Notes: a model not told the origin generated them from the sequence alone. A stretch of 64,000 nt of DNA from a virus (IMGVR_UViG_3300021399_000109:30710-94709); one strand, 5' to 3'. Shown: positions 36,629 through 42,150, counted from the stretch's first letter. Program-made: numbers and translations.

Positions 36629-37819
36629 TTATCTATTAAAATTTTCTAATACTTTTATATGTTGTATTAGCCTTTCACAAAAATAATCTATTTCTTCTTC
36701 AGTATTATTTTCATCAATACTAATTCTAATTGTATTTCTTGCTTCATTATCTGATAAACCCATTAGTGTTAATACTCTGCTTGGCTTATTTTCTCCAGAA
36801 GAACATGCCGAACCTGCTGATAATTTGATTCCGTCCAAGTCAAGTAATGTTATTAAATCTTTGGCACTAATACCACTAATTGTAAAAGAATTAATATAAG
36901 GACTACAATTTTCCACATCACCATTTTTATAAATGGCATGATGATGTACATCATAAGTTGCATATAAATGTTCTCTTAAATAATTAGAAAGGTATTCAAC
37001 TCTTTCCCATCTTTCCTCTTCCGTCTTAGCCAATCTTTCAATATGATTACCCATAGCGATAATATAATGAATATTCTCAGTTCCTGCTCTCATATCATTT
37101 TCCTGATGTCCACCAAGCATCATAGGTGTTAAAGGAGTATCATTTCTAACATATAAAAAACCCATTCCCTTAACTCCACCGAACTTATGAAAAGAAGCTG
37201 ACATAGTATTTATACCTAAGTCTTGAACATCAATAGGCATATGCGTTAATGCTTGTGTCGCATCTACGTGAAAATAAGCATTAGGGATAATATCTTTTAC
37301 TATTTGAACCATCTGTTTAATGGGATAAATAGTTCCTACTTCATTATTTACTAAAGAACAAGAAGTTAGCAAATTTCCAAAATATTTATAATTTTTAATT
37401 TTAGTTAAAATATCAGGCAATCTTCCTAAAGAAATTTGGCTTCTATTTCCCCATTCCATAACAAAATTTTGAACCCAAACATCATGTTCTTTTACAAGTA
37501 GCTTGCGTTGTTGTTCTATAGATGGATGGTCTAAATAATTCATGAGTACATGTGTTATAGATTCTTTATTATGAATGAAATGATTAATAGCCCAATTATT
37601 TGCTTCAGTTGCTCCTGACGTAAAATAAATTTCTTCAGGAGAACAATTAATATAACTGGCTATTTGCCCTCTAGCCTTTTCTACTTTATCTCTTACATTT
37701 TTTGCAGATTGATAATTAGCAGACGGATTATACCAATCATTTGCCATAGAAAATACAATATCTGTCATTACTTTCAAATCTGGCTTTGTAGTTGCCGCAT
37801 TATCAAAATAAATATTCAT
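36629..37819 (-). CDS. iscS: Cysteine desulfurase (IscS/NifS family)
   Basis: YFDNAATT, SGATEAN, HVDATQ, SASFHK (PLP Lys), RAGTEN and SAGSACSS (catalytic Cys). Confidence 0.95.
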   Translation of the reverse strand: MNIYFDNAATTKPDLKVMTDIVFSMANDWYNPSANYQSAKNVRDKVEKARGQIASYINCSPEEIYFTSGATEANNWAINHFIHNKESITHVLMNYLDHPSIEQQRKLLVKEHDVWVQNFVMEWGNRSQISLGRLPDILTKIKNYKYFGNLLTSCSLVNNEVGTIYPIKQMVQIVKDIIPNAYFHVDATQALTHMPIDVQDLGINTMSASFHKFGGVKGMGFLYVRNDTPLTPMMLGGHQENDMRAGTENIHYIIAMGNHIERLAKTEEERWERVEYLSNYLREHLYATYDVHHHAIYKNGDVENCSPYINSFTISGISAKDLITLLDLDGIKLSAGSACSSGENKPSRVLTLMGLSDNEARNTIRISIDENNTEEEIDYFCERLIQHIKVLENFNR

Positions 37820-38344: not shown

Positions 38345-38919
38345 TTATTTATCCTTTCTTCATATCTTTTTCTAATTTTTTGTGCTTTATCAGAGATAAC
38401 CCTTGTATGAATAATAGGGTTATCTCTGACAACACCCCAAACTTTCCAACTTCTTTCAGTTGCTAATGTTCTATCTTCTATTTCTGATTCCTTATAAAGT
38501 TTATCCCATAATTGTTTATCTTCATAACAATCTCTACACCAAGGTAAAACCCATCCAATAGGGACAATTAAGGCATCTGGCTTTCCACATCCTATACAAA
38601 TGTTTTCAGATAAAATAAAATAATCATTTATAATTTCATCAACCTCTTCTGGACATTTGCAATTATGATAAAAACGTAATCCTCCAAATTTTTCTTTAAC
38701 TTCTATAGCAAAAAAATCAAATAATTGATTACTTTCTTTCAATAATGGTTTAATATCTTCAGCCATACAAAGAATTAAATCTTCCCAACCTTTAGGTACA
38801 TCATCCAAAATAGTTGTTTTATAATCCCACTTATAAGATTGTGTATCTCTGTCCCACCACATACTTCTTAAAAAAGGATATTCATTAATTATTTTTTTAT
38901 TTTCTTCAATCGTTTTCAC
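38341..38919 (-). CDS. Hypothetical protein with KEKFGGLRFY and CxxC motifs
   Basis: VKEKFGGLRFY...CIGCGKP...WCRDC. Confidence 0.65.
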   Translation of the reverse strand: MKTIEENKKIINEYPFLRSMWWDRDTQSYKWDYKTTILDDVPKGWEDLILCMAEDIKPLLKESNQLFDFFAIEVKEKFGGLRFYHNCKCPEEVDEIINDYFILSENICIGCGKPDALIVPIGWVLPWCRDCYEDKQLWDKLYKESEIEDRTLATERSWKVWGVVRDNPIIHTRVISDKAQKIRKRYEERINK

Positions 38920-39826
38920 CTTTTATCTCCTTTTGTATTACATTAAACATTTCATCAATTGTTAAATTTCCAATTGGATATTTAATACTAGAGATACTAT
39001 CCCTTGCAAAAGTTTCAGATACTAAATCTACATATAAAGTAAAACTGCCATCATCCCCCATATAAAACTGTTCCCACTGTTCAGGAGTAAGAAGTCTTTT
39101 TACTTTAAGCTGTTCAAGTGCAAGATTATCAAAACTAAGTACCTTAAATTTATTTTTTAAATCTTCAAGACTATTATAAAGCCAGTTCATTTTATAATTA
39201 AAATCTTCCCAACAAGAATGAAGATGGTCAGAACCTCTACCAACTTTTTTATATCCTAAAATAAGAACTTTATGTCTATTATCCGCAAGTTTCGTATATG
39301 CTTCAGGAGAAGTAATTCCCACAATAGTATGAATTACAGCATTAGGAAAATGTGTAGGAATATTCAAATCAATTAATTCTTTAATCCCTTCTTCAGAGTT
39401 ATCTAAAGAAATTCCAATACCATGAATTAATTCATTTTTAGTAAGATACAAAAGATAATCCCAAAACTTAGTAATCTGTTTTTGATTCACTGTTACATTT
39501 GTGATTACTTGTTCTTCTTTAAGCATAATAAGAAATTCATCAAAATTATAAGGAATATCTGAGTTAAGGTTTAATGCGATTTCTGTATATGGATGTAAAT
39601 TACCCCAAATATTTGTAAATTTCATTAAATTAGCATCCCGTCCCTTTTCAGAACAACCTGCATAACAAAAATCACATCCATTTGTGCAATAAGTAGAAAT
39701 ATTACAGTCAAAGTTTTCAGGATACTCAGGTTTAAATTCGTCATCCATTGTTGTTCTAATTTTAGTTCCATCTGTATAGATTCTTGTGTTTACGTTTCCA
39801 TTTTTATACATTCCAATAAGTCTCAT
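38906..39826 (-). CDS. Radical SAM enzyme
   Basis: CTNGCDFC (CxxxCxxC) near N-terminus followed by core-barrel-like sequence; no C-terminal SPASM Cys cluster seen. Confidence 0.9.
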   Translation of the reverse strand: MRLIGMYKNGNVNTRIYTDGTKIRTTMDDEFKPEYPENFDCNISTYCTNGCDFCYAGCSEKGRDANLMKFTNIWGNLHPYTEIALNLNSDIPYNFDEFLIMLKEEQVITNVTVNQKQITKFWDYLLYLTKNELIHGIGISLDNSEEGIKELIDLNIPTHFPNAVIHTIVGITSPEAYTKLADNRHKVLILGYKKVGRGSDHLHSCWEDFNYKMNWLYNSLEDLKNKFKVLSFDNLALEQLKVKRLLTPEQWEQFYMGDDGSFTLYVDLVSETFARDSISSIKYPIGNLTIDEMFNVIQKEIKGEND

Positions 39827-39845
39827 TTAATTTATTTACCTTTCT

Positions 39846-40151
39846 TTAATCATAATAAATTTCATAACAAAAAGCTATCATTTCATCTCCAGATGGAGTA
39901 ATAAATCTTGTATGGGCATCTGGTTCATACTTATAGCCTAAATATTTAGGTTCTTCATCTCCTATATCTTCATATTCTAATAGCCCATATTTTTCAAAGT
40001 CTTTAGGATAAGGAATTAATTCATCTTTTTTTAAATCTATTACTAATTCTCCGTTGATAAATTTTTCATATTCTTCTGTAGTACAAACACATAAACTATG
40101 ACTAGAAGAAGAATTAGTTTCAAATACATTGCTTCTAATATTAATTTTCAT
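39846..40151 (-). CDS. NSSS-motif protein D (short type)
   Basis: MKINIRSNVFETNSSSSHSLCVC...FITPSGDEMIAF. Confidence 0.8.
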   Translation of the reverse strand: MKINIRSNVFETNSSSSHSLCVCTTEEYEKFINGELVIDLKKDELIPYPKDFEKYGLLEYEDIGDEEPKYLGYKYEPDAHTRFITPSGDEMIAFCYEIYYD

Positions 40152-40156
40152 AATTA

Positions 40157-40447
40157 TTAACCATCCCTTCCATAACGACCAAAAGCTACCATTCTATCTC
40201 CAGAGGGAGTAGTAAAGTGTTCCTCATAAGTTTCAAGATAACCCCAACTTTCTTCAAAAAAATCCTCGTAAGTCTGATTATCTTCATTCCATCCATTAAC
40301 AGAATTTTTAGTAAATTCATCATTCCAATAATCATAATAAATTTCGCCTTTTTTCCAAGCATCAAATTCCTCTTCAGTACAAATACAAAGTGAATGTACA
40401 GAAGAACTATTGGTTTCAAACACATTAAATCTAATATTTTTTTTCAT
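40157..40447 (-). CDS. NSSS-motif protein C (short type)
   Basis: MKKNIRFNVFETNSSSVHSLCIC...FTTPSGDRMVAF. Confidence 0.8.
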   Translation of the reverse strand: MKKNIRFNVFETNSSSVHSLCICTEEEFDAWKKGEIYYDYWNDEFTKNSVNGWNEDNQTYEDFFEESWGYLETYEEHFTTPSGDRMVAFGRYGRDG

Positions 40448-40469
40448 ATTTATTTTCTCCTTAATTTAA

Positions 40470-40970
40470 TTAATCTGAATTTGTTTCAAGTGCTATATTT
40501 TTATTAAAAATAAATTCAACTACTTTTTTAGGATTATACAAATCAACAAGACAATCATCCAAATATTCAGGATAAGTCTGATGGTCAAATCCTATCCCTC
40601 TTTTACCTCTTTTAGGATATACAGGAACAATATCTGTACATAAAATACTTGGAGAAAATTTATTAATATAAAAAATAATTGCGTCTTTTATATCTTGCCA
40701 GTAATAATTACAATCTTTATTTACAAATCCTTTTATGTTTTCTCCAAAATAACACCATAAAGAAGTTAATATATAAGAGATTTTCTCTTTTTGACTAGAA
40801 TAAATTTTGTGTTCTCTTCCAAAATATCCAAGGGGAATTTTAATTACCCCATCTTTATTTATTTGAAGTTCTTCAAAATTAGGTTCTGACAATTCTTGAT
40901 TCAAAAGTACAAGACTGTGTATTGAAGAAGAATTAGTTTCAAATATACTATTCCTAATATTAGTTTTCAT
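40470..40970 (-). CDS. NSSS-motif protein B (long type)
   Basis: MKTNIRNSIFETNSSSIHSL...GFDHQT. Confidence 0.8.
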   Translation of the reverse strand: MKTNIRNSIFETNSSSIHSLVLLNQELSEPNFEELQINKDGVIKIPLGYFGREHKIYSSQKEKISYILTSLWCYFGENIKGFVNKDCNYYWQDIKDAIIFYINKFSPSILCTDIVPVYPKRGKRGIGFDHQTYPEYLDDCLVDLYNPKKVVEFIFNKNIALETNSD

Positions 40971-40996
40971 TTTTTTTTCTCCTATTATATATGTTA

Positions 40997-41164
40997 CTAC
41001 GTTATAGATTCAATAGTATCCATATTATAAATTCCAACCCAACGTCCATCTTTAAGTATGATAAAAGACTTCCTATCATAATAATAATCTGTAAATTCAT
41101 TACCTGACCATTTATCTTCTCTTCCATCTTTAAAAACAATATGAATCGTATTATTATCTCTCAT
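40997..41164 (-). CDS. Small hypothetical protein (55 aa, MRDNNTIHIVFKDGRE...)
   Basis: Hand-translated; GAGGAG RBS. Confidence 0.65.
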   Translation of the reverse strand: MRDNNTIHIVFKDGREDKWSGNEFTDYYYDRKSFIILKDGRWVGIYNMDTIESIT

Positions 41165-41177
41165 TTTTATACTCCTC

Positions 41178-41957
41178 TTAGTCCTCAGTTTTTATAGAAA
41201 TATTTTCTCTTTGATTATAATAGTCTGTTAATTCTTCTTCGCTTTCATTTCCAGTTAAAAAACGAGGGAATATTTCTGTAATATCATCCACGTTAATAAT
41301 TCGATGCTTATATTGCTTTTTAAATTCACAATACTCATCTCCATCAATAACCACCCAATATTTTCTATTAGTAAGAAATACTTCAAGAGGAATATTATAT
41401 TTAGTGAGAAAATTAAGAAGAAGCCCCATACTTTGATGGTCTACTCCACCAGTTTTATAGTAATCAAATTCTCTACAGGTAAAATGCTGTCTCTCTTCAC
41501 TATCCCAAGCAATACCCGTACATCCCCAATTCTCTAAATCTTCTTCATCGTCCCAAATTTTATCGCTAATATAACCAAATATTTTTCCGTCAAAATCTCT
41601 TACATATTCAGTTCGTGTGCCTGTATCAAATTTAAATCTTTTACATTCAGGAATATATTTACAAGCAATTCTTTCCAGTTCGTTAAAATATTTATCTACT
41701 GTCTCTTGTTTTACATAAACTCCACAAAGAGATGCAATGGCATAACGCATTTTATCATTAAAAGTACATAAAATACTATAAGGACTTCTACCAAACTCAA
41801 GGTCATTATCCCAAAAATACCATTCACCATTTTTATTTATATATATATCTTCATGAAATTCTTCAGGAGTATACATTCCTGTTGTCTTACTTGTTACAAT
41901 AGAGTGCATAGAAGAACTATTACTTTCAAAACAGTTCATTCGAATTTGTGTTTTCAT
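41178..41957 (-). CDS. NSSS-motif protein A (long type)
   Basis: MKTQIRMNCFESNSSSMHSI...GVDHQS. Confidence 0.8.
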   Translation of the reverse strand: MKTQIRMNCFESNSSSMHSIVTSKTTGMYTPEEFHEDIYINKNGEWYFWDNDLEFGRSPYSILCTFNDKMRYAIASLCGVYVKQETVDKYFNELERIACKYIPECKRFKFDTGTRTEYVRDFDGKIFGYISDKIWDDEEDLENWGCTGIAWDSEERQHFTCREFDYYKTGGVDHQSMGLLLNFLTKYNIPLEVFLTNRKYWVVIDGDEYCEFKKQYKHRIINVDDITEIFPRFLTGNESEEELTDYYNQRENISIKTED

Positions 41958-42121: not shown

Positions 42122-42150
42122 AGAATAACACATTTCCCCCTATTTGTCAA
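42122..42150 (-). promoter_or_regulatory. Sigma-A-type promoter heading the NSSS/radical SAM/IscS/RNAP operon
   Basis: TTGACA-17-TATTCT. Confidence 0.7.

Follow-up and report, generated by a model that had tools for sequence, protein, structure and literature searches.

In the anaerobic sulfatase-maturating enzyme (anSME)/AtsB systems, a radical S-adenosylmethionine (SAM) enzyme acts on whole proteins, the sulfatases, at a short conserved motif near the N-terminus. In leader-guided maturases of peptides that are made by the ribosome and modified after translation (RiPPs), such as SuiB/SuiA, PqqE/PqqD/PqqA, SkfB and MftC, a single enzyme handles several paralogous substrates with a common N-terminal recognition sequence, and the leader is bound by strand addition. 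Here we describe a module that resembles both, found in a 64,000-nucleotide stretch of DNA from a rumen phage (IMGVR_UViG_3300021399_000109:30710-94709, hereafter the window), in which four open reading frames (ORFs) with a nearly invariant N-terminal tag directly precede the gene of a divergent radical SAM enzyme. The model of the complex makes it highly probable that the tag docks into the enzyme barrel, and we put the chance that the enzyme modifies its substrate within the tag, so that the two would form a two-component maturation module, at about one half.

As in the sulfatase systems, a serine in the motif of the tagged proteins (clients) would become a catalytic residue beside metal-binding Asp/His. 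Unlike anSME and AtsB, however, the module enzyme has no SPASM domain or auxiliary clusters, the anSME substrate motif (C/S)-x-P-x-R is not found in the tag (FETNSSSxHS), and the tag sits at the very start of the protein, its distance from Met1 being fixed; searches with the clients matched no family of sulfatases or alkaline phosphatases and no sulfatase fold. Strand addition, as in the RiPP maturases, is also predicted for the module. In contrast to RiPP substrates, the clients in the window are proteins of 96–259 aa with confidently folded bodies rather than short precursors, and the tag is far more invariant than RiPP leaders. In the model, a family-specific hairpin of the enzyme, which again has no SPASM domain, replaces the RiPP recognition element (RRE) or PqqD. 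No PqqD/RRE domain was matched in the enzyme, 44 members of its family or the neighbouring genes, and no protease or exporter was linked to the module over 238 loci.

Other radical SAM systems offer partial parallels. Glycyl-radical enzymes carry a C-terminal RVxG[FWY] loop on which their activase acts, whereas the shorter clients (family B, below) end in VAFGYYGHD, without the Arg, and the predicted contact is N-terminal only. For the His-Xaa-Ser system, HxsC (TIGR03977) gives weak matches in 14 of 44 enzyme relatives (best E 7.5e-6), equal to those of MoaA, viperin and NrdG, and the clients have no HxS repeats. The KpAvs2-Avap1-Avap2 defence operon likewise pairs a radical SAM protein (Avap1) with a small partner (the DUF6375 protein Avap2) in a context of phage–bacterium conflict (PMC11564622). 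A relation to Avap1/Avap2 was considered and rejected: PF19902 (DUF6375) matches none of the four window proteins or 43 relatives, hhalign gives a probability of 0.06% against a DUF6375 protein from a proteobacterial genome, and the radical SAM neighbour of that protein shares the generic core only.

Full-text literature searches turned up no publication describing the tag or the enzyme–tag pair. New here are a phage tag paired with a SPASM-less enzyme of ~300 aa that evades Pfam, two families of tagged bodies, and a controlled co-fold that places the tag in the barrel.

Results

Tag and body families

Translation of the ORFs confirms what the first-pass annotation of the window had reported, namely that four proteins of 259, 166, 96 and 101 aa begin with MKxxIRxxxFE[TS]NSSSxHS[LI]. 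The tag consensus is M-K-x-x-I-R-x-G-V-F-E-T-N-S-S-S-x-H-S, 19 residues in all, with Met1 at a fixed distance, 8–9 residues before F10. Among 277 distinct tagged proteins, R6, E11, N13, S14, S15 and H18 are conserved at 99.6–100% (S14 and S15 at 100%), with the figures for E11 and S14 slightly biased because the logo was seeded by a motif pattern and then extended with a hidden Markov model (HMM); F10, T12 and S16 exceed 90%. Despite this invariant tag, the bodies are ~30% identical, and beyond residue 19 the tagged proteins have nothing more in common than a hydrophobic strand pattern. The codons of the four window tags differ synonymously, including AGY/TCN serine switches, so that selection acts on the peptide and recent gene conversion is not the cause of the conservation.

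When the tag is removed, the bodies split into two families connected by BLAST. The two types distinguished earlier in the window, a long pair sharing (D/E)KxxY..SL and G.DHQ[ST] and a short pair sharing CxxEE..GE and F[TI]TPSGDxM[VI]AF, are real. Family A (174 members, 103–328 aa) includes the 259- and 166-aa proteins and carries K..Y, DHQ[ST], and either DGDEYC or T(G)NDN. Family B (79 members, 67–153 aa) includes the 96- and 101-aa proteins and carries Cys23 (87%), W..GE and a C-terminal TTPSG.K.VAFGYYGHD. Both families are present at approximately half of the loci and family A alone at most others, and 95% of tagged proteins have an isoelectric point below 5.5. The tag holds every residue that families A and B have in common; a modification site shared by both must therefore sit within it or not depend on which residue is present. 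One 395-aa ORF from an ENA metagenome (P0111) joins a long and a compact family-A protein, each tagged, so that the second tag is internal; the cause is a genuine fusion of the two genes or else a stop codon that was missed.

The clients resemble little in the databases searched. The four tagged proteins and 43 relatives have no Pfam, NCBIfam or PADLOC match, PDB profile searches of the tagged proteins found nothing, and PHROGs returned only phrog_28997, an unannotated family. For the 259- and 166-aa proteins, AlphaFold2 (AF2) gives models that are confident overall by the predicted local distance difference test (pLDDT), with residues 1–20 lower, at 46–73 (46–61 in the 166-aa protein). The low tag pLDDT in both monomers fits a segment that is able to leave the body. 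PDB fold searches with both models (Foldseek, VIA-wide) gave nothing informative, with best Z scores of 4.4 (in a variable insert) and 2.8, and searches of AFDB clusters, BFVD and the Atlas gave uncharacterised viral and bacterial proteins only, plus one Tad2-like cluster. Such blank fold searches do not establish a new fold for families A and B. The Tad2-like hit is a viral Atlas cluster of 261 aa (PF11195 in 97% of members) whose alignment with the family-A model spans 117 residues, at a template modelling (TM) score of 0.54. It may represent a family-A-like body fused to an anti-Thoeris sponge domain. Neither motif order nor fold supported reading the client motifs as those of a 2H-phosphoesterase, a metallophosphoesterase or an alkaline phosphatase/cofactor-independent phosphoglycerate mutase, or as sites of pyruvoyl or N-terminal-nucleophile self-processing or of intein-like Asn-Ser cleavage.

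Linkage of enzyme and tagged genes

The enzyme and the tagged genes are closely linked in both directions. At 79 of the 80 enzyme loci in IMG/VR, 1–6 tagged ORFs are adjacent on the same strand, and at the remaining locus the contig is cut 778 nt upstream. Conversely, the enzyme lies within 8 kb at 68 of 79 viral tag loci (three of the 11 that lack it end at a contig edge). In genome assemblies of bacteria and archaea it is present at 63 of 79 tag loci, many of the others being contigs of 2–5 kb. The co-occurrence that the first-pass annotation predicted is therefore observed, and NSSS proteins do not mostly occur apart from a radical SAM neighbour. Clustering of neighbours over 238 loci found tagged proteins in 207 and the enzyme in 206; the next family occurs in 21. 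Since nothing else recurs, the conserved unit consists of these two components. The phages that show this near-obligate pairing have hosts among the Bacillota, Bacteroidota, cyanobacteria and candidate phyla.

The cysteine desulfurase that lies downstream in the window had been placed in the same operon (as IscS). With desulfurase homologues at 4 of 80 IMG/VR enzyme loci and a desulfurase in 20 of 238 loci, it is ruled out as a core component and is an accessory gene added in some lineages, plausibly for Fe-S supply.

A single enzyme is accompanied by 1–10 tagged ORFs when viral and cellular loci are taken together. Enzyme homologues are found in Lak megaphages (46% identity) and in the cultured cyanophage of Microcystis, Ma-LMM01 (gp128, 34%), and tagged ORFs adjoin the enzyme in both Lak-B6 and Ma-LMM01. 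The N-terminus of Ma-LMM01 gp130 reads MLSIQVRQGVFETNSSSTHS. Lak-B6 has three tagged ORFs directly downstream of the enzyme, and related IMG/VR contigs of Lak size have a fourth. A tblastn search with the 259-aa protein against GenBank phages gave no match, though the tag can be read directly in Lak and Ma-LMM01. The pair is also present in genome assemblies of cultured gut Clostridia, for example Eubacterium plexicaudatum ASF492 and Acetivibrio ethanolgignens, where the copies are probably prophages. Together with Ma-LMM01, these are cultured systems that carry the module. The description of the clients as early effectors is not borne out in Ma-LMM01: its early genes are gp054-063, and the module genes gp128-130 lie outside this set and are not among the late genes named (PMC5780444). 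Nor did the analysis lend support to the further suggestion that a protein-derived cofactor results.

Two groups of loci depart from the usual arrangement. In one IMG/VR phage lineage (L099, L102, L107 and L114), a single tagged family-A gene has no module enzyme within 8 kb. Its neighbours encode a GP88-family protein (CxxCxCxxxC), a CxxCxxCC protein, a metallophosphoesterase, a 3'-phosphoadenosine-5'-phosphosulfate (PAPS)-reductase-like protein and a cysteine desulfurase, a context that may point to a different Fe-S partner. The largest array has ten tag-motif ORFs in 12 kb beside one enzyme (L210 and L213). These near-identical contigs are binned with Prevotella and Fibrobacter rumen metagenome-assembled genomes (MAGs), that is, with two phyla, which suggests mis-binned phage.

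Radical SAM enzyme

As first proposed, the gene that directly follows the tagged ORFs encodes a CX3CX2C radical SAM protein without SPASM. The motif C47-x3-C51-x2-C54 is invariant in 44 relatives (28–88% identity), and no other Cys is conserved among them, which indicates that there is no SPASM or twitch domain; SPASM (PF13186) matches none of 44 family members. Half of the relatives (22 of 44) match the radical SAM family PF04055 at E<0.01 (best 3.7e-11), and the window enzyme itself matches phrog_16999, 'Fe-S oxidoreductase', at E 3.7e-34. NCBIfam gives weak generic matches only (tungsten-cofactor maturase, MoaA, HxsC, viperin and NrdG), and the best PDB sequence matches, SkfB, the 'Fe-S radical SAM' entry 8wm2 and the radical SAM entry 5v1q, are all weak (E 0.02–0.03). 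Invariant residues of the barrel include E82, N110, T112, G136, G138, S140, N162, H166, K186, D233, Y255 and S277. At the SAM-binding strand, where the radical SAM superfamily has a GGE-type motif after strand 2, the family consensus is TExAIGGN, in which E82 and A84 are invariant, and the core is preceded by an N-terminal hairpin, YxNGN..DGTKIR, at residues 7–26.

In one relative (L122:7160-8026, IMGVR_UViG_3300045988_177881), and likewise in L108, the radical SAM ORF contains 11 in-frame stops, all TGA. Four of the L122 TGAs align with Gly of the window enzyme (G10, G191, G196 and G257, of which three are invariant) and one lies within the GGG SAM-binding motif, so this phage reads TGA as Gly (genetic code 25). 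Such a code agrees with the binning of tag loci L177 and L181 into MAGs of Gracilibacteria and Absconditabacterales.

Model of the enzyme and client together

Using an alignment of 44 sequences for the enzyme and one of 43 for the 166-aa client, we co-folded the two proteins with SAM and a 4Fe-4S cluster. The interaction prediction score from aligned errors (ipSAE) was 0.89, 0.83 and 0.81 over the runs, compared with 0.28 for the best control. In calibration, 58 of 80 solved complexes attained this mark, as did 2 of 110 mismatched pairs. The runs agree on at least 83% of contacts, and partner pLDDT is at least 73.

In the predicted complex, the client contributes only residues 1–17 and 20–21, with the lowest expected errors at residues 2–9. 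The enzyme contributes residues 19–31, which belong to the family-specific hairpin (DGTKIRTT) preceding the radical SAM core, and further contacts at 40, 82, 84, 110–112, 135–138, 162–166, 186–188, 231–233, 253–257 and 277. Nearly all of these are invariant in the 44 relatives, so that the model sets the invariant residues of one partner opposite those of the other. The proposal that the tag is a recognition site is therefore well supported by the model, in which the tag alone forms the interface, and docking of the tag into the barrel of the enzyme is very likely.

Proposed mechanism and alternatives

The proposed mechanism begins with tag residues 2–9, predicted to add as a strand to the N-terminal hairpin of the enzyme (19–31), a putative built-in leader-binding element; residues 10–17 (F-E-T-N-S-S-S) are predicted to extend to the invariants that top the barrel, with F10 to S16 reaching into it. 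The enzyme would then cleave SAM and abstract a hydrogen atom from the tag, with S14 or S15 as the likeliest target, and the resulting covalent change would mature the clients, as anSME does sulfatases. In family A, the tag strand might subsequently lie beside the invariant K, DHQS and DGDE residues and create a functional site. We infer modification within the tag, at a probability of about 0.5, from three features: the residues shared by families A and B are confined to the tag, their invariance goes beyond that of ordinary leaders, and they are positioned against the barrel invariants. A bolder extension, which we consider unlikely, is that S14 or S15 becomes a protein-derived catalytic group (an aldehyde, or a Ser-His or Ser-Asn crosslink) without the help of auxiliary clusters, switching on family-A enzymes and their family-B partners across phages for host takeover or counter-defence.

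Several points weigh against modification in the tag, or against parts of the evidence for it: (i) The window enzyme scores 11.9 bits against PF04055, under the gathering cut-off of 29.5. (ii) Its SAM-binding strand reads TEIALNLN, with NLN where most relatives have GG(N/G). (iii) The calibration holds only roughly for a co-fold that used custom alignments and ligands. (iv) The evidence from the co-fold consists of residue contacts and expected errors. (v) Of 76 viral tag loci of sufficient length, about 8 have no such enzyme within 8 kb. (vi) The enzyme has neither an auxiliary cluster nor an extra conserved Cys, which speaks against oxidation of the anSME type, crosslinks of the sactionine type and epimerisation that depends on Cys. 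(vii) The conserved leader of RiPP systems usually serves as the handle and is not itself modified.

If the handle role seen in known leader-guided maturases applied here, the tag would only dock the client, and the radical chemistry would take place elsewhere, at a fixed distance just past the tag, for instance at the Cys23 carried by 87% of family B or a backbone position, or on a molecule bound to the body. The lowest-error contacts, at residues 2–11, are in the leader-like part of the tag, and H18 and S19 fall outside the confident contacts, whereas residues 20–21 are within them. This account is nevertheless somewhat unlikely, given that nothing is conserved past residue 19 across families A and B, that S14 and S15 are completely conserved and N13 and H18 almost so, which is more than leaders usually show, and that residues 12–17 are in the predicted interface against barrel invariants. 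The insertion of extremely invariant polar tag residues among enzyme invariants could also mean that the clients act as exchangeable subunits for specificity or regulation, the tag completing an active site for a non-protein substrate (nucleotide, DNA, RNA or metabolite) brought by the body. The number of paralogues per enzyme would suit such an arrangement, the invariant polar motifs of family A (K, DHQS and DGDE/GNDN) suggest a binding or catalytic site, and genes of nucleic-acid metabolism (RNA ligase, kinase, methylase, PAPS-reductase-like) are often neighbours. However, no recurrent neighbour over the 238 loci defines a pathway, the bodies have no recognisable ligand-binding fold, and the plugged barrel would leave little space for a second substrate; we regard adaptor subunits as quite improbable.

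Less probable still is that the NSSS proteins are merely pathway neighbours, independent metal-dependent enzymes for which the motif is their own active site and which make no contact with the radical SAM enzyme. Although their E, H, D-H-Q-S and D-G-D-E invariants resemble metal ligands and the tag forms strands of the body sheet in the 259-aa model, family B keeps the tag yet has neither DHQS nor DGDE, no hydrolase-fold match was found, the tag has low pLDDT in the monomers, and in the co-fold, which passes its controls, only the tag makes contact. On these grounds, we consider this reading very improbable.

If modification within the tag is correct, the module would be a widespread virus-encoded protein maturation system with hundreds of loci, including those of the 540-kb Lak megaphages, and its enzyme a minimal radical SAM enzyme that recognises clients by a built-in hairpin instead of an RRE. 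It would offer radical SAM enzymology a new reaction or mode of recognition, and thousands of phage proteins now labelled 'hypothetical' would gain a function.

Locus layout

The features of the locus are listed in Table 1. In order of transcription they are the 259-, 55-, 166-, 96- and 101-aa ORFs, the enzyme, the 192-aa ORF, two small ORFs, the cysteine desulfurase and the polymerase. The desulfurase is thus three genes downstream of the enzyme and on the same strand.

Table 1. Features of the module and its surroundings. Coordinates are positions in the window; all features are on the minus strand unless stated.
Feature	Position	Strand	Remarks
Promoter-like site TTGACA-17-TG-TATTCT, upstream of first tagged gene	42122..42150	-	Candidate only
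Tagged client, family A long form, 259 aa	41178..41957	-	FGRxP, K..YA, G.VDHQS and IDGDEYC conserved; AF2 pLDDT 87; no known fold
N-terminal tag (residues 1–19) of 259-aa protein	41901..41957	-	Tag HMM E 1.5e-11
55-aa ORF between the two family-A genes	40997..41164	-	Homologues only in loci L007-L009
Tagged client, family A compact form, 166 aa	40470..40970	-	Q..K.SY, DHQT, F.FN, C-terminal T..D; AF2 pLDDT 88; co-fold partner
N-terminal tag of 166-aa protein	40914..40970	-	Sole part predicted to contact the enzyme (interface residues 1–17, 20–21)
Tagged client, family B, 96 aa	40157..40447	-	Tag, HSLCxC, W..GE, acidic linker, C-terminal TPSGDxMVAFGxYG.DG
Tagged client, family B, 101 aa	39846..40151	-	Tag and family-B body by sequence
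Divergent SPASM-less radical SAM enzyme, 306 aa	38906..39826	-	C47/C51/C54; directly downstream of tagged ORFs
Cys-rich (CxxC..CxxC) protein, 192 aa	38341..38919	-	Overlaps enzyme stop; homologues in 5/80 enzyme loci
NifS/IscS-type cysteine desulfurase	36629..37819	-	Aminotran_5 E 1.4e-55; NifS/DndA/IscS models match below cut-offs
YonO-like polymerase, 878 aa	33979..36615	-	phrog_8308 E 2e-88; NGSDQDSD where two-barrel polymerases carry DxDGD

The whole phage genome of 158.7 kb contains one enzyme of the module's radical SAM family. The tag HMM finds exactly four ORFs in this genome (E 1e-11 to 1e-14; next match E 0.2), all in the cluster of that enzyme. Each of the four tagged genes has its own Shine-Dalgarno sequence. 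The suggestion that the genes form one sigma-A operon is plausible only: they share a strand and no terminator-like site was seen between the enzyme and the desulfurase, but promoter-like matches in the region are not enriched over shuffled sequences (82 vs 77). Library searches with the 192-aa Cys-rich protein gave no family match. This protein is a lineage add-on, and the 55-aa ORF is lineage-specific and outside the conserved module.

The polymerase adjoins the module only in the closest relatives (L008 and L009). DNA of the phage turns up again in gut metagenomes that carry sheep, cattle and goat labels; except in what may be the source sample and in another run from that study, the matches are only partial. 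Outside the window, the same genome encodes a second radical-SAM-like ORF of 179 aa (~144318-144860, plus strand) with the motif GCPYRCEGCHS, which is unrelated to the module enzyme and which, by eye, resembles an anaerobic ribonucleotide reductase activase.

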